NCBI GenBank assembly: GCA_964187785.1
Contig: OZ076409.1
Coordinates: 57,600,001-57,664,000 of the forward strand
Direction of reading: 5' to 3'
DNA length: 64,000 nucleotides
DNA from: Amphiscolops sp. MND2022
Lineage: Eukaryota
Made by a program: the position numbers and the translations under genes. The notes beneath the pieces are model-generated. The model saw only the letters and a program-made list of their open reading frames with translations. It made no database searches and was not told the origin of the DNA. Positions 4,324 to 45,761 of the stretch are shown piece by piece (positions within the stretch are counted from its first letter, which is position 1; each line of letters opens with the position of its first letter).

Positions 4324-4437
4324 AAAACGTAATTTCAGACGAAAAAGGTGCAGGGGACCTTTTAGTCTTGTGGAAATGCCCTATATTCGAATATTCAATG
4401 TTATATCTGGATAGTTTTACTCTATGAGGTTCCTAAT

Positions 4438-6924
4438 TGTTACGACATGCTATCGAGTCGTTTTGAGTTGAACTTATTCTCACTGACTTTGTAGGGGTAT
4501 AAAAGTTTCTAGCCTCCTCTTCTGCTTCTTCCTCAGTATTCTCCCTAATGCTTCCCCTTGTTTCAGGTTTTAGGAGTTTCAACATCTCTCTCTGGGATTC
4601 GGCAAGAAGAGTCTTAATTTCCGATGTTATCTCATCTTTCAAGGATGCCCTTAAACTCTCCAAGAAACTATTTTCAATTCGAGGAGATTTTGGTCTGGAA
4701 GGACCCGACACGTCTACGTCCTGGTTTGAAGAACACGGATTTTCTACCACTATCGGTGAAATAAAACCTTCACTTACGTCCTTGTCGGCTTGTTGCTCAT
4801 TCCTTCTTTTCTGGCTTCTAGTTGTAGACATTTTGAAGAAAAGCTTTATCTTGAAGAATTGATTTTTCCAAAGATAATTTTCAACAAAGTTAGCTGAGAT
4901 TAGAGTTTAGCGAAATTGAGAATTCAACTGAATTAAACAATTGCAAAAGACTGAGTCCCTGAGTCAATGAAAATCATCCTATATATACCCTCCTAGCATC
5001 ATTTGATCACGATTAAAATCCTAATTTTCCTCGAACAATTAGTCATTTCCTGTATTTTCGATGAAAAAATCATTTTGTTCCCAATTTTACGTCGATAACT
5101 CGTCAATTTTTGAGACACGACAATTTCAATCTAGCATTAGTCATCAACCACGATCATATCATTTCAGCTCGGCGTCCTTTGCTTTCCTCCCAAGCAGGAA
5201 GTAGATATTACTTCAGTCTGTCAAACCGGAAATGATTCCCTGTTTTACTGCTTTGGTTCGTAGGAAAAATGACGCGGAGATGACGCTGACGTGAACAACT
5301 AATACCTGATTTTGAATTTTTACTTGAATAAAATACTATGACTAATGTTTTCAGCTTTGGAATTTCCAATGATGCTAGGAAAAGTAAGACAAAGCTATGG
5401 AATTAGCTTCAATTTTTGAGTTGAATTCTCACTTCAGATAAATAGTAATTAAACCAAATTAACGTAACATCAACGTTTACATTAGAAACCTAGAATGATT
5501 TGGCAACAGCTCTTGGCTTCTACAAAATTGGCTGAAAAGGTGGACGGAGCTATGACGTGTTAAAATCAAAGGTATTAACGAGTATGAATTTCATAATTGA
5601 ATTCATTCGTACTTGAGTTTAAACTTTGACGTCTTAACGCCGTTGAACCGAACTAATAAAAGTGAAACAGTCAGTTGCCAAAAGTGGTATGAAAATGATC
5701 ACAATGAGATGTATAAAATCAACAACAAGCACAGTTATATTGGGGGAGAAACACGAACATGAATATTACAAAAATATGACCTCATTATTAAAATATAATC
5801 TTTGCTGGTTCATAGCCCATAACTTTTCAGATACGTCAGATTGGCGTCAGGTTACACACAATCATATTTATGGTCTGCTTCAAACAGCATAAAATGTACA
5901 TTAATAGCATTCCCCCTTTGGAATAAACTGTGACTTTAATTATGAAGAACATGGAAATCCTAATCGGGTCATTTTACGATGTGATTCCAGAAGATTAGTA
6001 TTTTTATTGACGGGAACAGGACGTAAATTATCAAGTTTTATCCTTAATCTCGTAGAGTTTTAAAACATCTTTAAACGTTTCTCTTCCGTCAAATCCGACA
6101 TATTAATATTCATTTCACTGAATTGGATGGATTAAACCGACTATTTTGATGGATTTCGGACGTAACGTGGACGTACGTATTAAGATTGGCTATAGACCGC
6201 CGGCATTGGACGTAACGCTTACGTAAATTTGAAGTAAGAATTAATCCGCGCCGAGAAGGCAATACCGTGACGTCACTATGGCGGAAAATTGGAATGATTT
6301 TAAGTAGTGTCACTAATATAGGCGGTAAATTGGAATGGTTCTCTAGTGAGCGCGGACGGAACAGTGACGTCACATTATATACTTTCAAGTCTGCTTCTTA
6401 CCGACGCCTAATATACATGTATCCTTTATTTTGTTTACCTAGCGCAGTGCCGACGTCCTAATCCGCACTAATTGCTGTTCAAAGTGCAATTAAGCCGCCT
6501 TTCTTAGAAAAGGAGTGTATATTTCAGTGTGTCATCTCAATGTATTTTCTATTTTAGATCCAGATAATGTCCTTTTTCCAGTGGTGATTTTGGGTATGTT
6601 TTCGTTTAGATCGGTCTATGGTCTTTATTTCAAGACGTATACTTAATTAAGTTTTCAGGTGGCGAATGTTTCTATTTTGACGAGATGAAAACGTCCTGCC
6701 GGAAGTGTGTGAAATCATTTTGGCTCATTTTAGTTTCTGTTCTCATTTTCATTTAGACTTTGCGCAAGCTAGACGTACTTTTAGTCACAGTTTATTCTAA
6801 CATTAGTATGAAAGTTCAAGTCAGTGGCCAAAATACCTTTTCGAAAGTTTCGCTGTACAGCCGTGTCCTCGTCCGAACCCAATCCGTCTACATCCACAAT
6901 CCAGTCCGGGAGCGGACTGTGACA
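4438..6924 (-). repeat. 3' LTR (2487 bp)
   Basis: Matches 18529-21015 with ~11 substitutions counted by eye. Contains a copy of the first 131 gag codons (ORF 4433..4831). Confidence 0.97.
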
Positions 6925-7585
6925 GGGCCACTGTCATGGGTCGTATAACTCTCCCGGGTTGGCAAAACTGGAACGGCTGATATTGATTGTTTTCTTTGTC
7001 GTCTCCTGGAGTACGTTTCGTTGTCGCTGACCGTATTGGTGCTTGCTTTTCCAAGTCATTTAGTGGGCTAATCGGACGTGGAATTACTCTCTTCAGTGGG
7101 CCTGGGGGTGTCTCGAAAAGAGAAATATTGTCTTCTTCCCTGTGGATTTCCTCCAAATATTCGTTGATAATGCAGCTCGTGATCGATTGTGGGCTTGGTG
7201 CACGATGTCTTTCCACCACGAACACATCAGGGTTCGATTTATTGTCGTCCTCTTCCTGTTCATCCGGACTGTCTGGACTCTCCTTCATTGAGCTGTATTC
7301 GGACTTCGGCGAAGCGTTGTTAAGTTCTCCTGATTCTAGGGATTCGAAAGACGAACTCAGCCGCATCCTCTTGCAGTCCGCTTCTAACGAGTCCGCCGAG
7401 ACGTCGAAATACTCTTCTTCGTCAGCTACTGCTCTGGCGGATGAATTTGAAACATTTAGGATGACTCTAATATTGGGTAGTGACCCACTGGGAAGGGGAG
7501 TTGATGATCTCTCCGACGCCTCTGTTCCGTCTTCACTATCTGACGAGATGTCTATTAGCTCGTATATTTCCAGTAGATGGGTCAT
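6821..7585 (-). CDS. Accessory ORF, 254 aa from ATG 7585; acidic, Ser/Pro-rich, probably disordered; ends inside the 3' LTR
   Basis: Intact ORF (MTHLLEIYELIDISSDSEDG...) with CCAAT boxes upstream on the same strand (~7701-7708, ~7770-7776). No recognisable domain. Confidence 0.7.
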   Translation of the reverse strand: MTHLLEIYELIDISSDSEDGTEASERSSTPLPSGSLPNIRVILNVSNSSARAVADEEEYFDVSADSLEADCKRMRLSSSFESLESGELNNASPKSEYSSMKESPDSPDEQEEDDNKSNPDVFVVERHRAPSPQSITSCIINEYLEEIHREEDNISLFETPPGPLKRVIPRPISPLNDLEKQAPIRSATTKRTPGDDKENNQYQPFQFCQPGRVIRPMTVALSQSAPGLDCGCRRIGFGRGHGCTAKLSKRYFGH

Positions 7586-7645
7586 TTTCTTCAAGAAATT
7601 CTTTCTTTCTTTGCAGCTGACTTTTATCTTTTGATTGTTCCTCAA

Positions 7646-8078
7646 TGAATTCAGGATTAATTAGGATTAAGGAGAATATTGGGATAAATCCCTCTATTCT
7701 GATTGGCTATTCAATCATTTTAATCCTTTTCAATCCCCAGGTGTTGACGTTATTCCGGCGCCGCTTTTTATTGGCTGCAAATTAAATTAATCCGCTTAGC
7801 CAAGATTGTCAACGTTATGCTGACGTCATTTTCGTTAGCTTAACTAACTTTTGTTTTGTCACCGTTATGATGACGTCATTATAGGTTATAGGATTAATAA
7901 CCCAATAACCTTTTTGTCGACGTTATGCCGACGTCAATTTCGCTGATTTTTAATCAACTTTTTGGTACTGACGTTATGCCAGCGTCAATTTCGTTGGTGG
8001 CTTGCCAACTTTAAGTTTTGTCACTGTTATAATGACATCAATTTTGGTTGTTGTCTTCATCTTCGGGTTTGTTTTCAG
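7646..8078. promoter_or_regulatory. Putative bidirectional promoter with five spaced CGTTATGNNGACGTCA motifs and CCAAT boxes
   Basis: Motifs at 7813-7828, 7863-7878, 7921-7936, 7972-7987 and 8025-8040 (spacing 50-58 bp), between two divergent ORFs. Confidence 0.6.
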
Positions 8079-8096
8079 ATTCTGAGCTATTTGACG

Positions 8097-11000
8097 ATGG
8101 ATTCACGTCCCACTGTCTCTTCAGTTGATCCCGGGGCCCAGAGTGGTCACGAGACTCAATACGTGTTCTCGGAGGGAGACATGCGTCAGAGTGACGCGGA
8201 TGACATTCGACCTCGGGCTGTTGGTGAGTATTTCATTCCCTGATCCATTAAGCTTTTGTGAATAATACTACTACCAGATAGGCCTTTTCTGATTCATATT
8301 TTCACAGCTTAGATTTTCTTGACGCGTCGATGCTGGGAATGTACCTTTTCTTTTCTAGAGCCCAAGGTGATGACTACTCCTCTTGCTGGTGCTGAAGTGG
8401 GCGTTCCTCCTGCGACCATTTCTCCTGTGACGCCTTCTGCTGAGCTCGAGAGTGTTCCTTGTGGGTCGTCTGCTGCTGTCCCTGCTGGTGGAGAAACCCC
8501 TGTCGCGTCAGGTTCGAGGCCTGACGTCAATCTTACGGGCTTGCTCTCTGGTTCTCCTTGCGGAGGCGAGGTAGTATCCCCCACCGGAGAGAAAGATGAC
8601 GTCTTCGGGGCGGAATCTTCAGGAGCTGGGATCCTTGGGCAGACCTCCAGCTCACCTCAATTGACTCCTTTCCTGACTGGGTTCGGGCAAACGTTCGGTG
8701 GACTGACGCCTTCCGAATCCAGGAAAAGAGGTAAGGTTGACATATTTTGTTTGGTCTTGAGGTTTTTCCCTGTTTGATTGTTTGGTGATACATGTTGACG
8801 TTATAGTTGCGTCCACTGCTGCAGAAAGGGCTGGGACAGGCTCATCTGGAAAAAGGAAGCGTCAGGTGCGCGTGCAGACGGCGAATCTGCTTTTTGCGCA
8901 GCTTACTGTGAGCGGTAATAAAAATTTTTCAATCTGGGGTGTTGGGTAGGCTATTAGATAGGCTATTCGAATGTGACTTTGGTTTGTTTCGTAGAATCTG
9001 GAGATTGTGCCGCTCAAGGGATTTCTGGTGCTAGTGACTTGGACGTGGCCCGGGCGGAGCCTTCTGGAGTTGGTCCCGTACTAGCAAGTGAGTATACTTT
9101 GTCATGACTGTAGTCGTTATCTGCATCACGTTGAAGTGGGTTCTGTAGTGTACATCTAGGCATTTGTTGTTTGTGCTAGTTCTGTAGGTATAGTCTGGTT
9201 AGTGCTAATCCGTCGTTATGTCGTTTTGTAGGAATGCAAGATCTGGTGTCTCGGATGGAGAGCAGTTTGGAGGCGGTTGCTTTGCGTGAGACCCCCGTCA
9301 AGAAGTACAGCAGCCGTCATCATCTGCGAAAAGATATGGTGGGGGACCATCCCATCTTCAGTCTGTTTGTCAGTGGAGCCAGCAACGGGTCGGCCACTCA
9401 CTTCCACTGCATGATTTGCAAGCGGGATGTCTCCATGCAGTCACGCGGGTCAAGGGAGTTCGTCCGACACTACTCCGGCGATCGCCACTGGACTCGAGAT
9501 GTGGCCTACCGGGTTCAGCAAGGTCTGCCAGTGTTCGATCAGCTGATTAAGCCTCTCGAGCTGACGTCAGACCAGCGGGCCGAGTACCTGGGTCAAGATG
9601 TAGTGGAGAAAGATGAGGGATTCAGTTTCCCTGAGGACTTGCTGCCGTCTTGTACTCGGGTGGATTCAACGATTCCTCTGCTGACGATGGTAAACTGTGT
9701 GGCAGAGCTATGCAGGTGGGGTGGTAGCTACGTTTTGCTCCGCAAGCTGCGGGGCAATTTCCGTGCCACTCTGGGGCCTGACAATCCCCTATACAATCTT
9801 CACTGGAATCGTCCTGAGACACTGGTTAGTAATCTTCATAGAGATGAGTTGTGTTGTTTTTCCTCATCATGTGCCTGTTTCTTTTGTATGTGGACGTCTT
9901 GTGGTCGGCGTAGGTGGGTTTGTGCATCTGCTGAGTGAGTTGGTGCGTTTGTGTTTTAGTCGTTGATTTGTCGTGCTCTCTTTCCTCGGGTCCTGCGCTC
10001 CATCATCTCTCGCGTGACGGCCTTCAACTGCTACAGTGTGCGGTTTGAGGAGCATGCCGATGGCCAGTACTGCTTCGTTTCGACTTGGGAGGGCAATACT
10101 TTGCTGGACGTCTGCATCAATGTCGAGCCCTTGGGTCAGCGAGTGCCCCAGTCCGAACTGTCGTTACTGTCGCGCATCGTCACCAGTCTGTCCTCAGCTT
10201 CTCTCCATATCAGCATTCGTGGTGCCAGTCCATCCTGCCTGCGGGTAGTCAACGACGAACGCAGTGACGGGCATCGTTTGGTGTATGCTCGGGAATTCTC
10301 CTCTGATGTGTTCCTCCACTGCTATCGAGTTGCCCATCAAGAGATCTTCGGGATGTTAGAAGTCACCACCATGGTCGACTTCTTGATGGTGCGTCTTCGT
10401 GGGGCTTTGCAGGAGCCCTGGATGGAGGACCTTCCCGAACTTCGCCGTTGTGTGGTCGCTGGAAAGGTGACGTTCGCCGAACTGCGTGGTGTCGTGGATG
10501 AGCTGGTCTCCATTTGGGATACCGTCCGGGAGTACGTTCGGTACACTGGTCCCCGACACATCAAGAGCGAGGCTGACAAGGTGGGTATAGTTTTGTTTCA
10601 GGGTGCTGTTTTTGTATTCTTGCGGTGGGGTGTCGTCTCTCTGTGGGTTTGGCGAAATAGTCATCTTGTTGTTGCTATTTAGATGCGAGGCACAGACACG
10701 CTCGTCTACTCCGAGACGACAAACAAACTGCGACTGGGAATGCTGCTGCACGTTCTGGATCTTTGTAAGTTGTACTTTCCTGTGACTTTCTTTCGCTATT
10801 CTTGGTTTTTGGTTGTTTTTTTTGTTTTATTTTGTTGGCATAGTAGCTCGTTTGGTATGCTAGGTGGCTGATCGTCGTCGTCATCGGGTTGTCGTCTAGG
10901 TATCATAGTCTTGGTAATATGTGTACAGCCGTCTGTTGTGTTTAGATCATTGCACTTTCGTCAAACAAAAGGCCGGACGTAGTGACTACGCCTTTCATGC

Positions 11001-12264
11001 CTACAGTGAAGTGTGTCAGTTCGTGTACTGCTTGCTCATCCGCAGTCGCAAGGTGTCCAGTCTGCCTGCTCTCAATGATTGGGAGTCATATATGGAGCCC
11101 AGCAAGTTGCAAGCGTTCGAAAAAGTCAGTACTGACGATTTCTTGCAGAATTACGAGTTTGGGGCTGAACTACATCGTTCAAACACTGGTGAGGCGCGTG
11201 AGTTCCGCAATCGTTGTCGGGAATTTGTGGACCGGCTGGTGGACGTCATCTTGGATCAGCAGGTTGTGTCCTCGGATTTCCTCCAGGGGTTGTATTGCTT
11301 TTGCCCTGAGCTGCTCCTTGAGGGCGACGACCAGCATGTCTTTCAGCTGTTCTCTCGTCTGGTTCGCGTTCTTGAGCGATGTGGCTGTCTCTCCAGCAGT
11401 GATGCACAGTCGAGTCGTGAGGAGTTCGCCACATTCGTCGTCGATGCTAGGACGCGGCATCAGGAGTCAGAGCGAAGTGCGGAGCAGATCGAAGATGTTA
11501 CTGAGTATCTGCTTTCGGACTACAGTTTCATGTCACGGAGAAGCCTCGTCCGGGTACTGAAAGTGTGTTGCTTGGTAGTGGATCGCCCTCGCAGAAAGAT
11601 GCCTGACATTGAAATTGATCTTAAAGACTGTGCCGTTCCTGTTTCCGTCGTGACGTCGTCTCTGAGGGGCGTCCAAAGTCTTGTGTCTTCTCCCGGGTAC
11701 AAGCAGGGCGCTTTCTTCACTCAGGGAACTATGGAAAGTGTTCGCGATGCCATAGCCAGCAGTCGGAGTTTCATGTCTTGTGCCAGTTTTGACCCTTGGG
11801 AGAGTGTGTCATGTGGCGATCGTTCGGCCTTTGTGCGTCAATACTCTTCAGCCTTTGATGCTTATCTGAGCCGCAAGAAAAGTGATGCCACGAAACAGCT
11901 TCATAGTGCCAACCGTCAGCCGCGCCAAGTTCGTTTTTCGGAGTCTGGTGGTTCAGGCGGGTCAAGTGTCTCCAGTTCTCCTCGTGGTGGTGTGTTGCCT
12001 GCTACCTCATTTGCTGTTGCTTCTCCTGTGTCTGGTTCCGATGCTGGGACGTCAAGGCAACGTACTTATACTGCGGAGTCTTCCTTGGCTGCTATTCTTG
12101 GGCAGAAAAAAGAGCTGAAGCCCGTCAAGAAGGCGTGTGTTGGTAAGAAAGAAGCGGGAAATAAAGGCGCAGAGAAAGAGTCCTCTAAAGATCAGTCACA
12201 CGAGGGGCCAAAAAGTGCGAAGTCGATTGGAAGACGATTGAGTCCCAAGTCCAAGAGTCACTAA
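8097..12264 (+). CDS. Antisense spliced accessory gene, 1104 aa: low-complexity N-terminus, CxxC...H...H zinc finger, degenerate hAT-transposase-like body, basic C-terminal tail
   Basis: Exons 8097-8223, 8359-8730, 8807-8914, 8995-9087, 9232-9824, 9960-10580, 10683-10764, 10946-12264. All 7 introns are GT...AG, most with pyrimidine-rich acceptors, and phase-compatible (1,1,1,1,0,0,1). Total 3315 nt = 1105 codons with a single terminal stop. Zn finger: CMICKRDVSMQSRGSREFVRHYSGDRH. Confidence 0.85.
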
Positions 12265-12535
12265 GATGTGTAGTCGAGACTTGATACAACTGTTGTTGTT
12301 AAACTTTAGTAGTAGTCTTTTGTGCTTCTTTTATTGCAGCCTTTATTTATTTGATTGTAGTCGTTGCCTTTTGGCTATTTTTATTTTGCTGGATTTTAAA
12401 ATTAACTGATAGTGATTGACTCCCCAGCAAAATAGTAGAAAAGAAATTGGGGTCAAAAAAAAATCAAGAAAAAGAGGTCGTAGTATGCCAGTAATTAAAG
12501 TCGTCAGGTCGGTTCGATCTGGACACTTGATAGTG

Positions 12536-12550
12536 CTCTTTTCCCTTTCT
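12536..12550 (-). other. Polypurine tract AGAAAGGGAAAAGAG at the pol stop (candidate internal PPT)
   Basis: 15 consecutive purines on the element's sense strand, 5.6 kb from the 3' LTR. Confidence 0.4.
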
Positions 12551-15500
12551 AGTGAGTCGTAGTGATAGCGTCAAGTCTTCTAAAGTCAGGATTAGTATTG
12601 GGTTTACGATTAGGTCGTAGATTGTATTTCGCTATTTTGCTTGGATTATATCCAACTGTTGTAGGCGGCGATTTTGGGGGAATAGGTGGGTCTTCAATGG
12701 GTGGGGGGCGTCGTATATATGGATTATCCCCCACGTCTGTAGTAAGATTTGAAAAGTCCGGAGATGGCGGCGCTTTGTCGTCCGTAGTTTCAGGTTCCTT
12801 GTCCAGTATTTGTTGCGTCGCCGTTTCGTCCTGCGTGTTCGCTACCTCTTGTGTGACTGGTTGTTGATGATTGTTTTCGTTTTCTCGCGACTCGTGCTCG
12901 TCGATCTGTTTCCCGAAATCCATTTCCCATGAGACTGCGTACCACTCATTGTGTGAAATTTTGACATCTGGATCGGGAAGGTAATTGTCGGCTCGTACTG
13001 TGACGTCAGGCAAGCGTTGTTCTGGCACGTAAGGTCGTATGCGAATTCTGTGTAGTGTTTGTGTATATCTTGTGCCAAGTTTGCGTATTGTGTAGTTATT
13101 ATTGGAAAGCACTTTGATCACTATGTACGGGCCAGTCCATATGCAGTCTTGGAACGCAAACTTCGTCGACTGGTTGTCGGCTTTCGGATTGAGTATATAA
13201 CAATAATCGTTGATCTTCAGTGGAGCTGCAGACGCTTTGCGGTCGTAATATTTTTTATATTTGAGGTAGGATAGCATTATATTGTCCTTCGCTGTCGCTC
13301 GTACCTCGTCTATTTGTTTTTTTAATTGCTCTGCTATGTCCGAGTTGGGCGTTGTTTTCCACTTTGGCTTGATCCCCAATTTTAGGTCGAGGACATTGTA
13401 GGGTATTCGTCCGTGGAATAATGTAGATGGTTCACAGCCCAGAGTCTCGTGGTATGTTGTATTGTAGTTCATTACAGCTATTTGGACATACTTGTGCCAC
13501 ATTGAACGTCGTTCACCCGTCGAAATTTTTAGTGCGGTTTTGATTGACGCGTGTGTTCTTTCTAAATTTCCGATCGTCTGTGCATGTTTTGTAGACGCAT
13601 GGCTGATTTGAATCTCGAGTATTTGGGCTATTTCTGTGACGACTTCTGATCGAAATTGTGAGCCCTTGTCTGATAGGATTAGTGTTGGCAAGTATGCATG
13701 TCTTGTCATAACGTCGACAATGCATCGTCCGATTGTTTTCGCTGTGGCATTCTGTGTTGTATATGCAAATAGGTAACGTGAAAATACGTCGATCATCGTA
13801 ACGATGTTCTGGTATCCTGCAGAGCTTGGCAAATTTGGTAGTATGTCAATTTCAAGAATGTCCTCCGGACCAAGGACGTGTTCCGTATTGTTGATCATTT
13901 TCGGTCTGATTTGGCTGTTGTTGATTCGTTTGTATTTGATGCAGTCTTCGCATTGCATTACCCACTGTCTGATTCTTTTTGCTAGGCCGGGGTAGTAGTA
14001 CTTTGATCGGCATTCTTGAATCATTTTTGTAATCCCCGGGTGTTTTCCCATTTGTCCATGTATTGCCTTCAAGAGTTCTGTAACCAAGTGTTCGGGAATT
14101 AATATTTGGTGGTGGGTAACTTGTCCACATTCGCCGTAGTACTTTCGCATTAATACTCCATCTTTGACAATTAGTCTGTTTTCGTGGACTAGAAGGCGTT
14201 TGGCTGTCGGATCAGTTTGTAATAGGTGTTTGTCATAATCTTCAGAAATCAGTTTCTTTTTGATTGCTTTGAAAACTAGGTTTGAATCTTGTTCGACTCT
14301 GATGCGAGCATCCTCTTTTATTGCTCCAAAGGTATAAGATGCTTTATTTCTTGGAATTGGGGTGGTTTCTTTGATGGATAGTTTAATTTTGGACGTCTCC
14401 TCGTCGCGCGCATTTTGTCTAGCTTGTTCCTTCTGCAATAGGATTTCTTCTTCTGTTTCAATTGTTTCATCCGGAAGGAAGAAAAGCTGTTCCTCATCCG
14501 CGACGTCCGTAGATTGGAGATTCACTTGGATGGGCCTGATTGTAATGTCCTCTCTTATTTTCAATTCAACTCGTTCTTTGGGGGTAAGTTCAATGCGTGA
14601 TAGAAAATCAGCTGCAGTGTTTTGCGTACCAGCGACGTGCATTATGTGGAAGTTGAATTGTAGCACATAGTCACACGCGTTCCACAGCGTAGGCGGTATG
14701 GCTTTTGTTTGAAAGAAGCGCGTGACTGACCTGTTATCGGTCATTACGAGTGTTGGTAGCGTCGCTTCCCACAATATATGGCTGTATTCTAGAAATGCAT
14801 GGTAAATTGCTAGGAATTCTTTGCAGTAAATAGACATTTTTAGTTGAGCTGGGGAAAATACTTTCGATCCGAATGCGACCGGCGCAAATGTCTTCTTTTT
14901 TGAATTGAGTTTTTTGTCGTTGTTTTCCTCAATCATTAGTGCGTAGCCGGAGGCTCGGAAACTGGCGTCCGTCATCAGGGCGTACTGTCGTCCTGTGATT
15001 GGTTGTTTGAGTGCCAAACCGCAAGTTTGCGCCAGTGCTGCGTTGATAGCTTTGTAATGGTCAAGTAATTCTTCTGTGATTTTGATTTGTTTATCTGCTT
15101 TCAACAATTCATAGAATCCGAGTAATTTTTCAGATAATCGCGGGATGTAATTGCGATAATAATTGACAAAACCAATGTATCTTTGTACCTGCTTTTTTGA
15201 CTTTGGAAATCGTACATTTGCCAGAAATTTTTGTATTTTATGGTCTTGGGGGGCAATTCCTTGTGGAGTGATTGTTCTTCCGAGAAATTCAACCTCAGTC
15301 ACCCCGATATGGCATTTTTCTATGGTTAGTTTAAGCCCCGCTTGTCTGATGCATTCGAAAACGGCTTTGATGTTACGTATCAGTTGCGTCACTGAATTGG
15401 CTGCGATCCCGATATCATCCACATATTGTGCGCACTGGTCGGTTTGATCACTTTGTCTAAGTATTCTCTCATGAAACTTGAAAATGCCGACAGAGCCCTG

Positions 15501-17480
15501 CTCAGTCCTTGTGCTAAGCGTCTGTAGGCAAACGTCCTGCTTGCGAAGTTAAACGCCAGCATTTCAATGGATCTTTGATCTGCCATTTGTAAGCAGTGGT
15601 ATGCTTGAGAGCAGTCTAATTTGCAAAATAGCTTTTTACCAGCTAGGTGTTGAGTCGCATCTGACAAGGTGCTAACTGGATGGTTATTGTTGATGTAGTC
15701 ATCTGAGATTAGTGCGTTTATTTTTCGCAGGTCGACAAGTAGACGCAATTTGCCATTTGGTTTTCTCTGTGCGAAAATTGGGCTTGCATACTTTGAAAAT
15801 GGTAGGGTCGTTATTATGCCGTACCTGTGCATTAGCGCCAATTCGACTGTTAGGTCTTCTTTCAAATTGATTGGTACCGGCAAATTTTGCGTGTAAATCG
15901 GACGCTCGTCTTTCGGAGTTAATTTGACTTTGAAGCTATTGTTGATTCCAATGTCAAGGCGATGACGCGCAAAAATGTCGTTGTATTCGATTATTGTTTG
16001 TTCAAGTTGCTTCCTGTCATTGCCTTCGATTTGGGAGCCTTCCCACTGGAACATGTCAAGGAATTTTTGTCTTGATTTTGGGTCTTTGGTTGGATCTAAG
16101 TTTTCCTTTTGGATGAGTTCACGGATTTCCTTCAAGATCCGACGTTGGATTGGCGTATGTTCTTCTTCGTTCCCTGGATTCTCGGGTGTGGGGAACCAGA
16201 GGTTTTCATCGCTTTGTTCATGTTCATTTGATTTCATAAGCTCGTTGATGTACATGTGTGTGTCATCAGGATCTTCTAACAATTTGAGTGCGGCGGCGTC
16301 AACTGGTCGTATTTGTTTCGTGTCCTCAGGTTTGAGGATTTGTAGTTCTGCCAGCTTTGTATGATTCTTTATTGTATGTGGGAAATCCGTTAGGTTGGCG
16401 ATTCTGATGTTGAGCCTTTTGTTATGGGCTGTCGCCAGAGCTGGTGCAACAATGATTGTTGCTGTTTCATCAAATTGTGGTAGTGGTTGTACCGCACCAG
16501 TGACGTCATGCATGTTTGTGGTTATGACTATTGCGTTTACTGTTGTTGTCTGTTGAGGCGGCAGTGTCTGATGTCCTTCTGCCATTATTTGAAGCGGTTT
16601 TGGGTTGCATTTTTTCATTTCGTCTGTCATGGCTAACGTCATTTCGACGTGTGGGAAATTGATGGTTCCGTTGGCAGTGTCAATTACTGCTTGATGATTT
16701 CTCATGAAGTTCAATCCTATGATAGGGAATGACGTTTTCGATAGGATGACGAAGGTATCCGTGAAGGTATATGTTCCAATATTGAACTGGATGTCCGCTG
16801 TGGCTATTGGTTGTTCTAGTTGTGCGTTTGCGCATTCGATCTTGAAGGGGGGTTGAGGGTTATTTTTTTATGACACAACTATCACTGTTCATTTTGATTG
16901 CGTTGTAATCTGACCAGGACATGGCATTGATGAACGCGCCTGAGTCGACAAGTCCATCCATTGTTATCTCGCCAAATTCGAGTGGCAAGTACAGCATTCT
17001 CCTTCTATTCTTGAGGACTATGGTGGAATGGAGGGGTATGTATGTTTCTGCATCTTTTTCAGTAACATACTCTTTGATAGAGTTAAGAGATGTGGGGAAA
17101 TCCTCTGGGAAGATAGGTACTTGGGTGAGGCCGTGGGTATCTTCCTTTGTCTGTGTTGACGATGGTTGGTCGTCGAGGGCGTTTTCGGTTTGTTCTGTTT
17201 GGGTTATGGTGGATTGTGTTGTATTGGTGAGGGGTGGCTGGATGAGAAGGTTTGGGTGTTGTTTGTGGTCGTCTCCATGATCCTCATCTTGTGTCAGTTC
17301 CTTTTCGGTTTGTATGAGGGGTCTTCGTATGGAAGCGAGTGCCTGACGTCTCAGCCAGTCCTCTGTTGGAGTTCCGTCACATTCTATAGTTGTTTCGTTG
17401 GTGTATGTAGTAGGGGGATCATTTGGTGAATACGCCCTCGCGTCTACTGTTTCCCCGAAGCGCAGGCGCGGCGTATCTAG
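12549..17480 (-). pseudogene. pol: Gypsy pol (protease-RT-RNase H-integrase) with two single-base frame breaks
   Basis: The -1 frame is open from the slippery site through protease LVDSGA (~16935-16952). +1 insertion/TAA at 16860-16862. RT motifs RLLVDLRKIN and LDCSQAYH. 1-bp deletion near 15442, just before YVDD. RNase H TDASF. Integrase HHCC, D-D-E and GPY motifs. Confidence 0.93.
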
Positions 17481-17486
17481 TTTTTT
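17430..17486 (-). other. -1 programmed ribosomal frameshift signal (A AAA AAC plus GC-rich stem-loop)
   Basis: AAAAAAC at 17486-17480 directly before the gag TAG. Followed by ATACGCC...GGCGTAT stem (17476-17430). The -1 frame is the pol frame. Confidence 0.85.
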
Positions 17487-18922
17487 GATTCAATGACAGA
17501 GTTAGCTGTCGTTGGTTGGACGGGAACGTCCCTTTTTGATTCCGGGTTATTGTGACGCTTAGGTCGTGGATCGTTGGCAGAGTTGGCTCCGTTCCAACAA
17601 TCTTCCGTTTTGTGAGGTTTGCCGCATGTGTCGCATTTAAGCGACTTGCCTGCACTAGAGTTGGTTTGACCATTGTTCTTCCTGATCTGCATCCATTTAT
17701 CTCTCTTCATTTTCCTACATTCCGCTTTGTAGTGTCCAAATTTGTTGCAGTAGAAGCAATATCCTTTTTTGACATTTTGCGTCGTGCTGTCGACTTGTTT
17801 GGGTTCAGTTTTTGTTGGGGCCGGTTCTACTTTATTTAGTGGTACCAGTGTTACTTCATCTGGCGCCCCAAGGCCGTTAAGCCTCATTTCTCTTTCCAAG
17901 TGTAGCACAATGTCATTATATGGCTTGTCTTCGAGATACGCCCTGTTTAGTATCTTTTTTATATGATCTGGCATTTTTGCGTATATTGCTTTGTCAATGA
18001 ATTGTTGGGCTTCAGATCCGAAGGCTTCTTTGGCCGTTTTTTGAAGTACGCCTAGAAATTCATGGAGTTTCTGGTTCGAGGGGTCAAATCTGAGCGCATC
18101 CCATTCGCATCTTGCTTTAGTTGCTTTAGCCGCAGACAGGTAGTCCCCGAAACGTCGTTTGAATATCGTCATTATTTCGTCAAGAAAATCTTTTTTCGCG
18201 TCTTCTATATTGCAAAACGCCTGGAGGGCGTCTCCTCTGAGTAGCGAGTGGAAATAGTTAATTTTTTGTATTTCCGTGAGATGGGGATACATTTTTATGT
18301 TGTTGCGGAAAAGATCTTCGAATAATTCAAATTTTTCCGATTTCCCGTCGAACGTTGGGAGAGATGCCGTTAGTGCCTTTGGCATGGGCAGCGTTGTGCT
18401 GTCACCTTTTTCCGATGTAAACAGGGTCCTTGCCACAACTGGACGTTCTTTTGACAATGGCTGACTTTGGGACCGGGCCTTCGTTCTTTTTGGCTGGTTA
18501 GTGGAGTCGGTTAAAACTCCTGTCACCATGTTACGACATGCTATCGAGTCGTTTTGAGTTGAACTTATTCTCACTGACTTTGTAGGGGTATAAAAGTTTC
18601 TAGTCTCCTCTTCTGCTTCTTCCTCAGTATTCTCCCTAATGCTTCCCCTTGTTTCAGGTTTTAGGAGTTTCAACATCTCTCTCTGGGATTCGGCAAGAAG
18701 AGTCTTAATTTCCGATGTTATCTCATCTTTCAAGGATGCCCTTAAACTCTCCAAGAAACTATTTTCAATTCGAGGAGATTTTGGTCTGGAAGGACCCGAC
18801 ACGTCTACGTCCTGGTTTGAAGAACACGGATTTTCTACCACTATCGGTGAAATAAAACCTTCACTTACGTCCTTGTCGCCTTGTTGCTCATTCCTTCTTT
18901 TCTGGCTTCTAGTTGTAGACAT
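17477..18922 (-). CDS. gag: Gag, 481 aa, starting inside the 5' LTR
   Basis: Intact ORF with capsid-like LPTFDGKSEKFELFEDLF, knuckle CFYCNKFGHYKAEC and a second CDTCGKPHKTEDC. Confidence 0.93.
   Translation of the reverse strand: MSTTRSQKRRNEQQGDKDVSEGFISPIVVENPCSSNQDVDVSGPSRPKSPRIENSFLESLRASLKDEITSEIKTLLAESQREMLKLLKPETRGSIRENTEEEAEEETRNFYTPTKSVRISSTQNDSIACRNMVTGVLTDSTNQPKRTKARSQSQPLSKERPVVARTLFTSEKGDSTTLPMPKALTASLPTFDGKSEKFELFEDLFRNNIKMYPHLTEIQKINYFHSLLRGDALQAFCNIEDAKKDFLDEIMTIFKRRFGDYLSAAKATKARCEWDALRFDPSNQKLHEFLGVLQKTAKEAFGSEAQQFIDKAIYAKMPDHIKKILNRAYLEDKPYNDIVLHLEREMRLNGLGAPDEVTLVPLNKVEPAPTKTEPKQVDSTTQNVKKGYCFYCNKFGHYKAECRKMKRDKWMQIRKNNGQTNSSAGKSLKCDTCGKPHKTEDCWNGANSANDPRPKRHNNPESKRDVPVQPTTANSVIESKN
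18511..18528 (-). other. Primer-binding site TGGTGACAGGAGT..., inside the gag coding sequence
   Basis: TGG directly follows the LTR CA end. Resembles the complement of tRNA-Leu 3' ends (TGGTGTCAGGAGT); the tRNA identity is from memory and unverified. Confidence 0.8.
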
Positions 18923-21015
18923 TTTGAAGAAAAGCATTATCTTGAAGAATTGATTTTTCCAAAGATAATTTTCAACAAAGTTAGCTGAGATTAGAGTTTA
19001 GCGAAATTGAGAATTCAACTGAATTAAACAATTGCAAAAGACTGAGTCCCTGAGTCAATGAAAATCATCCTATATATACCCTCCTAGCATCATTTGATCA
19101 CGATTAAAATCCTAATTTTCCTCGAACAATTAGTCATTTCCTGTATTTTCGATGAAAAAATCATTTTGTTCCCAATTTTACGTCGATAACTCGTCAATTT
19201 TTGAGACACGACAATTTCAATCTAGCATTAGTCATCAACCACGATCATATCATTTCAGCTCGGCGTCCTTTGCTTTCCTCCCAAGCAGGAAGTAGATATT
19301 ACTTCAGTCTGTCAAACCGGAAATGATTCCCTGTTTTACTGCTTTGGTTCGTAGGAAAAATGACGCGGAGATGACGCTGACGTGAACAACTAATACCTGA
19401 TTTTGAATTTTTACTTGAATAAAATACTATGACTAATGTTTTCAGCTTTGGAATTTCCAATGATGCTAGGAAAAGTAAGACAAAGCTATGGAATTAGCTT
19501 CAATTTTTGAGTTGAATTCCCACTTCAGATAAATAGTAATTAAACCAAATTAACGTAACATCAACGTTTACATTAGAAACCTAGAATGATTTGGCAACAG
19601 CTCTTGGCTTCTACAAAATTGGCTGGAAAGGTGGACGGAGCTATGACGTGTTAAAATCAAAGGTATTAACGAGTATGAATTTCATAATTGAATTCATTCG
19701 TACTTGAGTTTAAACTTTGACGTCTTAACGCCGTTGAACCGAACTAATAAAAGTGAAACAGTCAGTTGCCAAAAGTGGTATGAAAATGATCACAATGAGA
19801 TGTATAAAATCAACAACAAGCACAGTTATATTGGGGGAGAAACACGAACATGAATATTACAAAAATATGACCTCATTATTAAAATATAATCTTTGCTGGT
19901 TCATAGCCCATAACTTTTCAGATACGTCAGATTGGCGTCAGGTTACACACAATCATATTTATGGTCTGCTTCAAACAGCATAAAATGTACATTAATAGCA
20001 TTCCCCCCTTGGAATAAACTGTGACTTTAATTATGAAGAACATGGAAATCCTAATCGGGTCATTTTACGATGTGATTCCAGAAGATTAGTATTTTTATTG
20101 ACGGGAACAGGACGTAAATTATCAAGTTTTATCCTTAACCTCGTAGAGTTTTAAAACATCTTTAAACGTTTCTCTTCCGTCAAATCCGACATATTAATAT
20201 TCATTTCACTGAATTGGATGGATTAAACCGACTATTTTGATGGATTTCGGACGTAACGTGGACGTACGTATTAAGATTGGCTATAGACCGCCGGCATTGG
20301 ACGTAACGCGGACGTAAATTTGAAGTAAGAATTAATCCGCGCCGAGAAGGCAATACCGTGACGTCACTATGGCGGAAAATTGGAATGATTTTAAGTAGTG
20401 TCACTAATATAGGCGGTAAATTGGAATGGTTCTCTAGTGAGCGCGGACGGAACAGTGACGTCACATTATATACTTTCAAGTCTGCTTCTTACCGACGCCT
20501 AATATACATGTATCCTTTATTTTGTTTACCTAGCGCAGTGCCGACGTCCTAATCCGCACTAATTGCTGTTCAAAGTGCAATTAAGCCGCCTTTCTTAGAA
20601 AAGGAGTGTATATTTCAGTGTGTCATCTCAATGTATTTTCTATTTTAGATCCAGATAATGTCCTTTTTCCAGTGGTGATTTTGGGTATGTTTTCGTTTAG
20701 ATCGGTCTATGGTCTTTATTTCAAGACGTATACTTAATTAAGTTTTCAGGTGGCGAATGTTTCTATTTTGACGAGATGAAAACGTCCTGCCGGAAGTGTG
20801 TGAAATCATTTTGGCTCATTTTAGTTTCTGTTCTCATTTTCATTTAGACTTTGCGCAAGCTAGACGTACTTTTAGTCACAGTTTATTCTAACATTAGTAT
20901 GAAAGTTCAAGTCAGTAGCCAAAATACCTTTTCGAAAGTTTCGCTGTACAGCCGTGTCCTCGTCCGAACCCAATCCGTCTACATCCACAATCCAGTCCGG
21001 GAGCGGACTGCGACA
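18529..21015 (-). repeat. 5' LTR (2487 bp)
   Basis: Direct repeat of 4438-6924. TATA-like TATATATAG near 19070-19078, ~150 bp upstream of the gag ATG. Confidence 0.97.
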
Positions 21016-21123
21016 CTAATTTGTTCACGTGATCAGACGTGGCTGGTCCAGTAGTTTAGTAGTTTCTGTAAACTGCGTCCACAACGCATGCATTCTGTTA
21101 TCTGACGAGAAAATGAAAAAACT

Positions 21124-37400: not shown

Positions 37401-37859
37401 TCATTTAATATTCTAATAGACAATCAGAAGAGAGCTCTAGTATTTGTTGTGTTGAGAATTCTTTCCAAAACGAAACAGGAAACTGAACTAGAACTTGTTC
37501 AAACGTTTCACGCTTCGATTGAAAGACGTTGAACTGAAGAACTGAAACTGTTAATGAGCTTTCTTTGTGTTGTTATTTCGAATTGACTAAAGACTACTGT
37601 TATTGAAAGTTTCTGTTATTGAAAATTTATGTTACCGAAAGAATTGAAATTATCAAACAGGATAATCTTTTCGATACGTTTGACGTTTCGAAACATGGCG
37701 CTCCTGGTTTGATAAAATTTGAAAAAAACACCACCTCGAGACTTTGAAATTGGGGAAATACTGAATTGAAGAGTTTAAAACGTGACAAAAACAGTGCCAC
37801 GAAAAAAGAAACAGTGCAAAAAAAAGGAACAAAAAAAATCAGAAAAACACTCCGGAAAA

Positions 37860-40800
37860 TGAATAATTCAGTGAAAAGAATTAAAAGTAAGGAACAGGGT
37901 CACATGAATGTGATTGAAAAGTTGGTTAAAGATGCGGAGACGTTAATATCAGATACGGAAGATTTTTCGCAGAAAAAGTTTTCGCGGTTGCGGGCAATGA
38001 AGAAAAAACTTGGGGATTCGCGGTTAGCGATGGAAAAATTTGATAGGGAATTGGACGAGGCGTTCGCCGAAGAGGAAGAAGTTGATGAATCAGCGGTGAC
38101 AGAAAACGTTGAAAAATGTCAGGCGGCATTAATGCTACTCGAGGAGTGCATTTGCGCTATTGAATTTTTTGAAGAAGACTTTGCCAAAGAGAAGGCTCTT
38201 GCGTTACAAGTAGGAAGCAGCAGAAGCTATGAAAATCCTAACGCCGAAGAAGTTGTTGATTTGAGTACAGGAAAAAGGGCGTTTGAGGAAACAAGATTGG
38301 ACGAGGAATCAGGTTTCGATGCTGGTGTCATACGGCATACGGACACAAGAGCAACAACGGGTTCTGCATTGAGGCAAACTGATGTTATCCGGTCGGGAAG
38401 AACCGTCGGCTTCAACGTAGAAAACCTAACGTCTCCTTCGCGGTATCGTGACGGCAATCCTGTGGCTGAAAGGGACGAGGTACTACGTTTTGGGTCAGGA
38501 CAAGAGCCAAGCAGTGGCGACCAGTGGAGTAGCGCTGGTATAGGACGTTTCCCGACAAATACACAATGGGCTGAGCGCCAAGGGAGTATTTGGGACAACA
38601 GATCATTGCAGGAAAGCAGCAGATTTGAAACCGAAGAGAGTTTTCTTCCACACAACCTGTGGAGTCCATTGAATCAAATCCATGGTTCAGTTGGAGAAGG
38701 GGCAGGGAGAGTTGGACTTTCTGCAACTTCGAGCAGCGAAGTTCGAACTGTTGGTGCTGTCGGAGAAGGATTAGGTGATGGTAACAAAGCAGCCGGCGAT
38801 TTAAAAGATAGTGAAGAAAGAGACAAAGAGTCCTTGACGAAAGCAAATTCCACAGAATGCAGCGGTAAAACTGATGACAAAGTTTTGAGCGCTTTAAAAA
38901 CTGTCAGACTTCCTAAGGTGGACTTGCCAAAATTTGACGGTAACGTAGACGAATGGTTGAACTTTCGGGACTTTTTTGGGCACGCTGTACATGAAAACAA
39001 GTTTTTGTCCAAAATTGACAAGTTTACTTACCTGAAATCCAGCTTGTTGGGGAGAGCTGCGGAGACAATTTCGGGTCTTCCCATAACTAGCGCAAACTAC
39101 GACAGTGCGTGGCAGCTGCTAGAGAAGCAGTTTGGAGATAAGCAACGGCTTATTTCAAACTTCATGGATCGGTTGGTGAAACTACCTGCTGTTGCAGAAG
39201 GAAAGGATGTCGGTAGGCTTCGGAATTTTGTGGGACGAGTGGAGGTTATCATCAGAGGTCTTTAATCTTTGTCAGTGGATCAAAGTACTTTTGGGTCTGT
39301 GTTAATTCCAATTCTGTTAGGCAAGTTACCGGAGGACATAAAGTTACAGGTAACTAGATTGATTTCGTCGGAGATTTGGAATTTGAAGGAGCTGTTAGAG
39401 CTTCTTAGCAAGGAGGTTGAGGCTAGGGAGAAGTGTGCCTTCTCGGTACAGAGAGCAGCAGGTGGTAATAAGCCTGCTCTAGATAGAGGTGACTCAGATG
39501 GTACAGCAGGTTCATTTGTGGCTAAACTGCAAGTTAAAGGATGCGTCTTCTGCAATGGAAACCATACTAGTCATAAATGTTCGATGATTCAGACGCCCAA
39601 GGAACGGAAAAGGTATTTGATAGAGAAAGGAAGATGCTTCAAGTGCCTCCAGGGAGGTCACATGTCGAAAACGTGTCAGGTTAAGGGTTGTTTCAGGTGC
39701 GGCAAGGAACACCACCAAGCGATTTGCTTCAAGTCAGTACCAACAACAGGAGCAAGCGGCAACATGTTCAACAGTAATCGGAATGCAGCGAGGGCTGGAA
39801 ACCAGCATCAGTGGAAGCAGCAGAACTATAACCAAGAACAGAACTCGCTGAACTCGTTTCATCCACCGGGGAATGTATCACAAGGCGATACGGGCCGCAA
39901 ATTGAATCGGGTTCATAACTATCAAAACAACAATCGTCCAGTGGGAGATGATAAGCCTAGTCATGGCGAAGAAAGTTCTTCAGGAGGAAACAAGACAGAT
40001 TCAACGTCAGTTTCACTTTGTTCTTCTAGCAGATGTCTGGTATTGCTGGAAACGGCGGTCACGACGATTTCAAACGGTTTAGGCGAAAGTTGCAAGGGAA
40101 GAATTCTTCTTGACAAATGTTCGCAGCAGTCGTACATCACAGAAGAGTTCGCCGCAAGATGTGGCTTAGAAGCCGTTGGTCAAAAGTCTTTTTCTTTGAA
40201 CGCATTCGGGTCTGATAAAACAGAAGAAAGCCAACGATGGGTTTACAGAGCGTGCATACAAACTCTTTGGGGAAAAGTTTTCGTGAATTTAGTGGGGATG
40301 CAGACCATATGTTCGCCTCTGCTGAACCCGTGTAACATCCAGGCAATAAAGGGGCAGCATAAGTATTTGAGCAATCTTCAGTTGGCTGAAGACTTCAGGG
40401 AGGACATTTCAGGTTCTTTGTCGGTCCACATTCTTATCGGGTCAGACTTGTACTACCAGTTTGTCACCTCAGATGTCATTGTGGGTGGCTTCGGTAAGAA
40501 ACTGAGTGCAGTGAGCAGCAAGTTCGGTTGGGTATTGTCTGGACCTATAACATGCGGTGAAGGTAGCAGCGATAGCTCAGTTGGAACTTTTGTTTGCTCC
40601 GTTCGGGGAAAAGACACTTTGTCGGAAAAAGTTGAATCGTTTTGGGGATTTGAAAGTTTAGGTATAGGTGTCGGAGAAGATCCAATTCTTGCGAATTTCG
40701 AAGAGTCAGTGAAGTACAATGGAGAACGGTACGTGGCAAAACTCCCTTGGAACGACAACAAACAGTTCTTGCGGGACCACAGGAGCTTGGCTACAGCAAG

Positions 40801-41519
40801 GTTGGAGTCAACAACCCGAAGTGCTATTAACAAAGGAAGGCTGAAAGAATACGACGAGGTCTTGAAGGATCAGGTTAAGGCGGGAATTTTGGAAGAAGTT
40901 CCAGATAATGAGGTAAGGTCAGAAAAGTTCTGTCATTATACCCCGCATCACGCGGTCATCAGAGAGGACAAGGCGACTACCAAAATGAGAGTTGTTTTAG
41001 ATGGTGCAGCCAGATCGGCGAAGTTTGACTATTCAATTAACGATTGTCTGTCCAAAGGACCGAATTTGCTGGTTTCATTGTTCGAGATTCTCTCGCGGTT
41101 TCGGTTATTCCAGGTTACAGTGTTAGCGGATATTGAAAAAGCGTTCCTACAAGTGTGCATTGATCAGGATGACATAGATTCTTTGAGGATTCTCTGGTAT
41201 GATGATGCACTCCAGTCAACAAGAAATGTAAGAGTTTTTAGATATTTGAGGGTGGTTTTTGGGTTTGTCTGTAGTCCATTCCTCTTGAATGCTACAATCA
41301 GGGTGCATTTGAAAAGATGGTTGGAGCAAGCAGTTACAGAGGAGGACCGCTGTGGTTTGAAAAGACTTCTGGAAAGTTTTTATGTCGACGATTTGACATT
41401 GAGTGTACCTTCAGACAACGAAGCTGAAAAGTTGGTGTCCATATCTGTGAACGTTATGAAGGATGCAGGGATGAGCTTGCGAAAATGGGTAACCAACAGC
41501 TCAGGGGTTTACAACAGAC
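37860..41519 (+). pseudogene. BEL/Pao gag-protease-RT with premature stop at 39263-39265
   Basis: LPKVDLPKFDG...KFTYLKSSL Gag region, three Cys/His knuckles, protease ILLDKCSQQSYI, RT ADIEKAFLQV and FYVDD. Confidence 0.9.
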
Positions 41520-43119: not shown

Positions 43120-43268
43120 AACAGTAGTCTTTAGTCAAATCCTCAAAGAATCTATGTCATCCTGATCAATGCACACTTGTAGGAACGCTTTTTCAATATC
43201 CGCTAACACTGTAACATGGAATAACCGAAACCGCAAGAGAATCTCGAACAATGAAACCAGCAAATTCG

Positions 43269-45294: not shown

Positions 45295-45761
45295 AAACAA
45301 AGTTAGGATTGAATCTATTTCATTACCATTTGTCTCAAAGGTGAAATCAATTGTGGTACGGTACATTTTCATCTCTACTTTCGAAACACCTCTCTCATTG
45401 CATCTCATTGCGTCGTCGGGAGGATGTTGAGAATTCTTTCCAAAACGAAACAGGAAACTGAACTAGAACTTGTTCAAACTTTTCACGCTTCGATTGAAAG
45501 ACGTTGAACTGAAGAACTGAAACTGTTAATGAGCTTTCTTTGTGTTGTTATTTCGAATTGACTAAAGACTACTGTTATTGAAAGTTTCTGTTATTGAAAA
45601 TTTATGTTACCGAAAGAATTGAAATTATCAAACAGGATAATCTTTTCGATACGTTTGACGTTTCGAAACAGTTGTTTACAATTTCGTGTGTGGCAGTATT
45701 TCAAAAAAACACAATCTTCAAATGCAGCAACAAAACTTTGAATGATTACAGCATCAGAGTA

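Follow-up and report, generated by a model that had tools for sequence, protein, structure and literature searches.

What is a gene with several introns doing inside a retrotransposon, on the strand opposite to the element's own genes? The question is raised by a 64,000-nucleotide stretch of the genome of Amphiscolops sp. MND2022 (assembly GCA_964187785.1, contig OZ076409.1, positions 57,600,001 to 57,664,000), hereafter the window, to whose forward strand all coordinates refer. Here a 16.6-kb Ty3/Gypsy long terminal repeat (LTR) retrotransposon lies on the minus strand and carries, antisense to gag-pol and between pol and the 3′ LTR, a predicted gene of eight coding exons that we call the cargo gene. 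On the evidence of genomic copies and related families, the cargo is a real gene under purifying selection and a lineage-wide component of the LTR element, and structural models make it very probable that the encoded protein descends from a hAT transposase. A first-pass annotation of the locus had recovered the gene structure; the identity of the protein, the exchange of the cassette between elements, variation in introns 5–7 and a second accessory open reading frame (ORF) had all escaped it.

The association of the cargo with its carrier was examined across the genome (1.07 Gb, 1929 contigs). A DNA search returned 36 matches at 92–100% identity, and in the 29 other close loci the sequence continues into pol every time and into the LTR in 28 cases, the exception (locus L013) abutting a partial duplicate. 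Exon 8 alone gave 96 scored matches in tiers of 93–100, 81–84, 76–79 and 66–67% identity, and, for the lower tiers, the single locus sampled from each repeats the window layout. The arrangement extends to distant families: L034 and L035 (pol 50% and cargo 27–28% identical to the window) and L036 (pol 64%, cargo 36–43%) hold the gene antisense and tail to tail with pol, and further divergent families are plentiful in the genome (97 matches for homolog P0015; 51 for P0121, with open frames of 862–918 amino acids (aa)). In the reverse direction, starting from the best 52 of 104 pol matches, 36 adjoin a cargo already listed, and all six retrieved from the other 16 carry a divergent one; no cargo-less pol copy was found among these 42 resolved matches. 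The first-pass annotation had described a stable cargo of the LTR lineage, with no terminal inverted repeats (TIRs) or target-site duplication (TSD) of its own. Both statements hold up, since no inverted pair brackets the gene in 6900–12600 among the 25 longest of 146 listed, the junctions are fixed in all copies, and copies, families, the pol test and selection all argue against an independently mobile nested insertion.

Selection was assessed from pairwise nonsynonymous-to-synonymous rate ratios (dN/dS; Nei–Gojobori point values without intervals). In pairs for which the 3′ part of pol gave 0.19 and 0.09, the cargo core (aa 235–990) gave 0.09 and 0.05; the disordered ends gave 0.32–0.46. These core values of 0.05–0.09, a check that the first-pass annotation had proposed together with exon-versus-intron divergence (below), indicate purifying selection. 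Weighing against a maintained gene, an open frame together with a full set of splice sites survives in only 10 of the 29 close copies, although this is what decay following insertion would be expected to produce.

Three further observations concern the copies themselves. Locus L031 (around 2774) has no equivalent of window 7940–9385, which covers exons 1–4 and part of exon 5, and in L013 part of the cassette is duplicated in tandem. Distant homologs of the cargo follow one another in pairs or runs at intervals of about 13.6–15 kb (for example C13:16515582-16544086, C11:34835398/34849014 and C9:27446678/27460622), a spacing near the element's LTR-to-LTR period of 14.1 kb that suggests tandem elements. 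The best identity found in the genome is at most 53% for homolog P0121, 41% for P0018 and 36% for P0122, and no relative with flanking DNA was confirmed in viral contigs or metagenome contigs.

The best-scoring splice chain runs from an ATG at 8097 to a stop at 12264 and bears out the seven GT-AG introns (76–181 bp, predicted) and the single 1104-aa antisense frame of the first-pass annotation. Because 3600 stop-free chains can be constructed from the candidate splice sites, an open frame is in itself weak proof of the model, and the case is carried by four other lines of evidence. Base composition separates the two classes of sequence: introns have a GC content of 0.36–0.44 and a T content of 0.40–0.47, exons 0.52–0.58 and 0.21–0.27, respectively. 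Among the 29 close copies, splice dinucleotides are intact at 401 of 406 sites, and exons show 15 insertion or deletion events in 3315 bp, none common to more than one copy, compared with 33 events in 853 bp of intron, 12 of them common to several copies. Intron positions are also retained in subfamilies whose exon-8 protein is 67–82% identical: L032 has all seven window positions, L031 the three left by its deletion, and L033 five by DNA alignment, with the other two placed in the same phase by a splice program. Lastly, P0121, an uninterrupted 890-aa homolog, is collinear with the window protein across junctions 5, 6 and 7 (26% identity, 31 gaps in 814 columns, about 4%). On these grounds the exon-intron model is real as a reading of the DNA, with splicing itself predicted.

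Exons and introns also diverge at different rates. Between L033 and the window, exons 5–8 are 65–76% identical and introns 5–7 44–54%. Intron 1 departs from this trend, with a conservation (83–89%) above that of its exons. The splice program was trained on the introns of the window, those of L032 and five of L033, so its independent results are L033 introns 2–3 and L035 only; it failed to model L036, and the two in-frame introns that it proposed for L034 are doubtful. By eye, a SGHET..F motif in exon 1 is common to the window and the first exon of L036, families about 40% alike in the core, within fast-evolving surroundings.

For the fold of the protein, a genomic relative, L039, served as a full-length proxy (876 aa, single-exon core, 28% identical to the window protein, E 1e-107). 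It was modelled with AlphaFold from a 67-row alignment that included window exons 5, 6 and 8, giving a mean per-residue confidence (pLDDT) of 74 and a predicted template-modelling score (pTM) of 0.65. Foldseek returned 12 matches to this model at E ≤ 0.001, and the ten best listed are all Hermes (E 1.9e-5 to 6.3e-4, probability 1.00), the next unrelated match having an E of 0.07. A VIA search of 48,161 chains likewise placed Hermes first, with Z 12.7, a root-mean-square deviation (rmsd) of 5.5 and 401 aligned residues, against Z 5.9 for the next match; model residues 201–703 align on Hermes 133–609, and six Hermes entries scored Z 12.4–13.3. In the model a large helical insertion interrupts an RNase H-like core, the arrangement being collinear with Hermes, and the finger, beta core, insertion and last helix follow in hAT order over about 400 collinear residues. 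A language-model search (Atlas) pointed to FAM200, GTF2IRD2, ZBED5 and Dimer_Tnp_hAT clusters at 0.81–0.90, which we treat as leads only. Sequence libraries named no family, although exon 8 has matches at E ≤ 0.001 to 550 cluster representatives.

Several results speak against hAT descent. The Foldseek superpositions have an rmsd of 13–16 Å and template-modelling (TM) scores of 0.43–0.54, and the model is of a relative only 28% identical to the window protein. With a model of window exon 8, Hermes again ranked first among the 48,161 chains, at Z 4.5 only and tied with unrelated helical bundles; Foldseek found no match with this model alone. Pfam assigned no family to the cargo exon frames and homologs, PF05699 and PF14291 included (the Pfam version may predate FAM200 and ZBED5 models), and profile searches of the PDB with the cargo returned no family either. 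An hmmsearch of the cargo profile against six genomic hAT frames was negative, and hhalign against five genomic hATs gave probabilities of 0.2 and 0.1. A search of viral folds in BFVD pointed to no family. A DUF4371 profile search of the genome had no match, but its control was silent as well, and it does not bear on the question. Weighing both sides, we consider descent from a hAT transposase very probable on the modelled fold.

The hAT motifs were mapped by eye from the aligned ranges, model strands, motif spacing and five intact genomic hAT frames, one of them aligned to Hermes. Unlike the intact genomic hATs, which display the catalytic motifs, the cargo family has the second catalytic Asp in 0 of 65 rows (the window residue is R518), CxxH in 1 of 65 and RW in 0 of 65. 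The ERxF/WS motif of the catalytic Glu appears in 0 of 43 rows, and in the corresponding segment, before the last helix, a Pro is near invariant and the model shows no helix. What is retained is a C2H2 zinc finger, present in 31 of 40 rows with near-invariant ligands C293, C296, H313 and H319 and possibly of BED type, though with no Pfam match, together with a KRKR motif and a disordered basic C-terminal tail in the window protein. Two points count against loss of catalysis: the mapping was made by eye and is not a residue-level superposition, and the first Asp site is ambiguous, position 461 being variable and 462, at the end of strand 1, D or E in 48 of 49 rows. On the modelled fold and these motifs, the most natural reading is a hAT-derived protein that would bind DNA without cutting it and has disordered ends.

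The cassette varies in ways that its carrier does not. Cargo classes 100, 74 and 55% alike adjoin pol sequences that are 93–97% alike. L033 matches the window at 99% in the LTR end and at 97% in the neighbouring ORF but only at about 70% in the cargo, the divergent block (about 8000 to 12500–13100) coinciding with the cargo gene. Because variants 55–100% alike sit on near-identical pol, the alignments indicate that the cassette is exchanged between element backbones. Introns vary as well: introns 5–7 are present in the window group and in L036 (in L036 by eye from the sequence and tblastn breaks) and absent in the P0121 group, and the N-terminal part of L035 has four introns, the fourth coinciding in position with window intron 4. 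Judged from the DNA, the joint absence of three adjacent 3′ introns would fit loss through a reverse-transcribed antisense mRNA, although it may instead reflect gain in the other groups.

The 5′ end of the gene may lie further upstream than the ATG. An acceptor AG at 8077–8078 precedes the ATG by 18 nt, and its score of 13.8 falls among those of the coding acceptors. An acceptor-like T-tract with AG stands 17–35 nt before the ATG in all six families examined, pointing to an additional non-coding 5′ exon or to a trans-splice site, so that eight exons may be a minimum. Candidate donors lie about 217 nt upstream in L034 and L035; in the window no strong one lies nearer than the candidates at 7011 and 6820. 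The 6820 site, within the LTR, survives in L031, in L033 and at 27 of the 30 close loci but is missing from L032, and is equivocal. The first-pass annotation had given the gene its own promoter, for which there is a candidate: between 7600 and 8096 there are two full cyclic-AMP response element (CRE) sites and nine half sites, compared with 0.5 in mononucleotide shuffles, and four CCAAT boxes (p 0.026). The claim is loosened by the conserved acceptor, with which the transcript may begin further upstream, possibly in the 3′ LTR, so that the promoter may be either the CRE/CCAAT cluster at about 7700–8050 or the 3′ LTR. A second cluster of CRE-like half sites, six per 500 bp against 0.8 outside the element, occupies 5900–6400 of the 3′ LTR and may serve as an enhancer or as a promoter of antisense transcription.

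Head to head with the cargo is a second accessory ORF, sense to gag-pol, for which dN/dS of 0.26–0.44 indicates moderate purifying selection and a Pfam search gave no match. Counterpart sense ORFs of 260–347 aa occupy the same place in L034 (7196–7990), L035 (946–1725) and L036 (6930–7970). An IDISSD plus acidic motif in this ORF is common to L032 and L036; we take it to resemble a small ubiquitin-like modifier (SUMO)-interacting motif. Coordinates of these and the other features of the element are collected in Table 1.

Table 1 Positions of the cargo gene, its neighbours and the carrier element in the window
Feature	Position	Strand	Description
TSD, left	4433-4437	.	CTAAT; 5 bp, identical repeat of the right TSD
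3′ LTR	4438-6924	-	2487 bp
Second accessory ORF	6821-7660	-	279 aa stop to stop, acidic, Ser-rich; sense to gag-pol, head to head with cargo, end within 3′ LTR
Intergenic region	7661-8078	.	3–4 imperfect repeats with CRE-like TGACGTCA sites and CCAAT boxes; candidate promoter of one or both accessory genes
Cargo exon 1	8097-8223	+	First coding exon, ATG at 8097
Cargo exon 2	8359-8730	+	Low complexity, fast evolving
Cargo exon 3	8807-8914	+	Sole KRKR motif (aa 182-185), candidate nuclear localization signal
Cargo exon 4	8995-9087	+	
Cargo exon 5	9232-9824	+	C2H2 zinc finger (~9408-9488) and region preceding the RNase H-like core
Cargo exon 6	9960-10580	+	RNase H-like beta sheet, onset of helical insertion domain; lacks second catalytic Asp, CxxH and RW
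Cargo exon 7	10683-10764	+	
Cargo exon 8	10946-12264	+	Remaining insertion domain, remodelled catalytic-Glu segment, extra helices, disordered basic tail, stop
Spacer	12265-12548	.	Separates the convergent cargo and pol stops
pol	12549-17489	-	Protease region, reverse transcriptase (RT), RNase H, integrase (Pfam); broken over three frames in the window copy
gag frame	17477-18997	-	DUF1759, zinc knuckle (Pfam); open from within the 5′ LTR through the primer-binding site
5′ LTR	18529-21015	-	
TSD, right	21016-21020	.	CTAAT

The carrier has the features of a Ty3/Gypsy element. Its two 2487-bp LTRs have TG...CA ends and differ at 11 positions, and the Pfam domain order (gag, RT, RNase H, integrase) is that of Gypsy. 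With the gag frame starting inside the 5′ LTR, about 130 Gag-like N-terminal codons are present in both LTRs (4433–4906, minus strand, in the 3′ copy). A polypurine tract before the 3′ LTR (6925–6945) is not evident, and the adjoining bases are nearly invariant among close copies. Elsewhere, the window holds a BEL/Pao element at 37450–45670 on the plus strand (246-bp LTRs 99.6% identical; an internal 1.6-kb duplication, 38463–40062 and 41520–43119), a 4.6-kb unit duplicated in tandem at 46363–55658 with copies 96% identical, and a 245-aa frame at 1116–1853 on the minus strand with a weak coiled-coil match (FPP, E 0.004). BEL/Pao elements are essentially confined to metazoans, and the presence of one suggests an animal host.

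How such a gene could arise and persist can be sketched as follows. In an ancestral Gypsy element, the gene of a hAT DNA transposon would have come to lie antisense in the interval from pol to the 3′ LTR; the simplest route is that the transposon inserted there and later lost its ends. Antisense introns are not spliced from the genomic RNA of an element and are copied at each retrotransposition, and the introns here would persist because the cargo gene is antisense to the element RNA. The transposase would have lost its catalytic motifs, retained its zinc finger and fold and gained disordered ends, and selection would then have retained it as a third module of the lineage. From a separate antisense transcript, spliced and translated, the protein would enter the nucleus, bind DNA or chromatin through the zinc finger and act on the element's own promoter DNA, turning on or unsilencing transcription. 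ZBED1/DREF and DAYSLEEPER are non-cutting hAT-derived host factors that act in the nucleus on DNA or chromatin, and it is by analogy with these, with the nuclear gene23 protein of maize Grande and with the HBZ protein of human T-cell leukaemia virus (HTLV) that we favour such a regulator, a reading to which we would give a little under an even chance. Two findings speak against it: cargo genes 55–74% alike sit on pol 93–97% alike, with the L033 cargo at about 70% beside an LTR end at 99%, and a trans-acting factor should allow cargo-less free-riders, of which none was found. Because variants are exchanged freely on near-identical backbones, a tight lock-and-key fit to one LTR sequence is disfavoured, and other explanations stay alive.

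The leading one, which we think rather unlikely though deserving of attention, has the disarmed hAT acting at integration, where it would bind the complementary DNA (cDNA) ends or integrase and escort the complex to the nucleus or tether it to chosen chromatin. Retention of the entire RNase H-like core and insertion domain, beyond the finger, would make sense here, for end-binding and target-capture surfaces could be reused; the core is also more constrained than the 3′ region of pol, and nuclear import of the pre-integration complex has been proposed for plant antisense ORFs (PMC7264820). A protein made from a separate antisense mRNA has no evident packaging route, however, and its variants are swapped across near-identical integrases. 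That same swapping looks different if the protein acts through protein-protein contact as an inhibitor of, or decoy for, a host factor in silencing or defence, or if it restrains the element in the way that HBZ restrains HTLV-1, with DNA binding secondary. At least three cargo classes (100, 74 and 55% alike) on near-identical backbones, a swapped block in L033 that equals the gene, fast-evolving ends (dN/dS 0.32–0.46) and a neighbouring ORF with a SUMO-interaction-like motif resemble the pattern of an arms race; yet pairwise subfamily values all lie below 0.5, with no sign of positive selection, and the swapping may be neutral template switching, and we consider this account less likely still.

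The remaining alternatives are improbable to different degrees. A remodelled nuclease or strand-transfer activity that aids the element could draw on the residue that closes strand 1, acidic in 48 of 49 rows, and on several other invariant acidic columns, but with the second Asp, CxxH, RW and the Glu motif gone, and the Glu segment carrying a near-invariant Pro and non-helical in the model, we see little chance of it. That the fold match misleads and the protein is a captured host gene or a novel fold would accord with the uniformly negative sequence and profile tests against hAT and with the weak match of exon 8 alone; two structure programs and the language-model search nevertheless agree on hAT over about 400 collinear residues, which leaves this slightly more improbable again. 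Least credible is an independent, still mobile nested hAT transposon or a non-expressed relic. Its hAT ancestry and the abundance of active-type hATs in the genome (150 matches) lend it some plausibility, and it is largely refuted by the absence of bracketing inverted repeats, a fixed place in all copies and families examined, the lost catalytic motifs and dN/dS of 0.05–0.09. Our joint reading, offered tentatively and held at rather less than even confidence, is that a class I element, a Gypsy lineage both old and spread through the genome, took a class II transposase into its service: the disarmed hAT would be an essential, spliced, antisense third gene, an interchangeable allele paired with the second accessory gene, that reads element DNA or chromatin against silencing or steers integration, and one branch would have lost three adjacent introns through reverse-transcribed antisense mRNA.

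The layout itself is already known, and the first-pass statement that no description of such a system was known went too far. Antisense ORFs between pol and the 3′ LTR occur in maize Grande (gene23), rice RIRE2, Silene Retand, bean PvRetro13 and fungal Boty (PMC7264820), and spliced antisense genes are described in deltaretroviruses (PMC10186651). For the plant ORFs, the origin is called unknown, with no transposon similarity backing nested insertion (PMC7264820), and the available portion of a 2025 Retand survey says likewise for TRP28 (PMC11963269). TRP28 (PF04195) is a transposase in name, with a role described there as unknown and a range given as flowering plants only (PMC11963269, same portion); a Pfam search found no PF04195 in the cargo exon frames or homologs. 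A survey of annelid elements, in the sections available, mentions antisense ORFs only in its introduction (PMC8220671). We found no report of a hAT- or transposase-derived antisense gene in an LTR element in the open-access literature, Repbase and most subscription papers lying outside that scope. What is new here is the hAT origin, at the strength given above, with the loss of catalysis, lineage-wide retention, swapping and intron polymorphism.

These features matter beyond the locus. They provide a traceable source, hAT, for an antisense accessory gene of a kind whose origin and function are called unknown in a review (PMC7264820) and in the available part of the Retand survey (PMC11963269). 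For the putative ancestor, structures and DNA-binding parts are known, so that function becomes testable. The copies, numbering in the hundreds and spread over many subfamilies, offer material on cassette exchange and on intron gain and loss where element replication cannot splice the gene, and orphan antisense ORFs elsewhere are worth folding and comparing with transposases.

Set beside known systems, the cargo shares with plant antisense ORFs its position, orientation, presence in most copies and a conservation like that of other element genes, and gene23 is nuclear and has its own promoter (PMC7264820); unlike them, the cargo has a fold pointing to hAT, a length of 1104 aa and seven predicted coding introns. 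The antisense gene brtn of Boty-like Gypsy elements in Botrytis and Sclerotinia shares the place between pol and the 3′ LTR, outside plants (cited in PMC7264820 and PMC8365987). HTLV hbz and aph-2 are spliced antisense genes expressed from the 3′ LTR whose products are nuclear regulators of the element (PMC10186651); HBZ differs in being a small protein of basic leucine zipper type that overlaps sense genes of a retrovirus, with no homology to the cargo. LTR elements of bdelloid rotifers carry extra ORF3s (GDSL esterase, DEDDy exonuclease, env) that were captured and are shared among retroelement classes (PMC5408684), and in the available part of that report these follow pol and are of enzymatic or envelope type, with no DNA-transposase origin or introns described.

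The closest likeness is to Hermes and the hAT-derived host proteins ZBED1/DREF, ZBED5/FAM200, GTF2IRD2 and DAYSLEEPER, which share with the modelled cargo an N-terminal zinc finger, an RNase H-like core and a helical insertion. Unlike hAT transposases, the cargo is without catalytic motifs and TIRs and has disordered extensions of about 230 aa at the N terminus and 110 aa at the C terminus, with about 70 aa of extra helices. Unlike the hAT-derived host proteins, it would have been domesticated by another mobile element and is multicopy, which would extend transposase domestication from hosts to other mobile elements.

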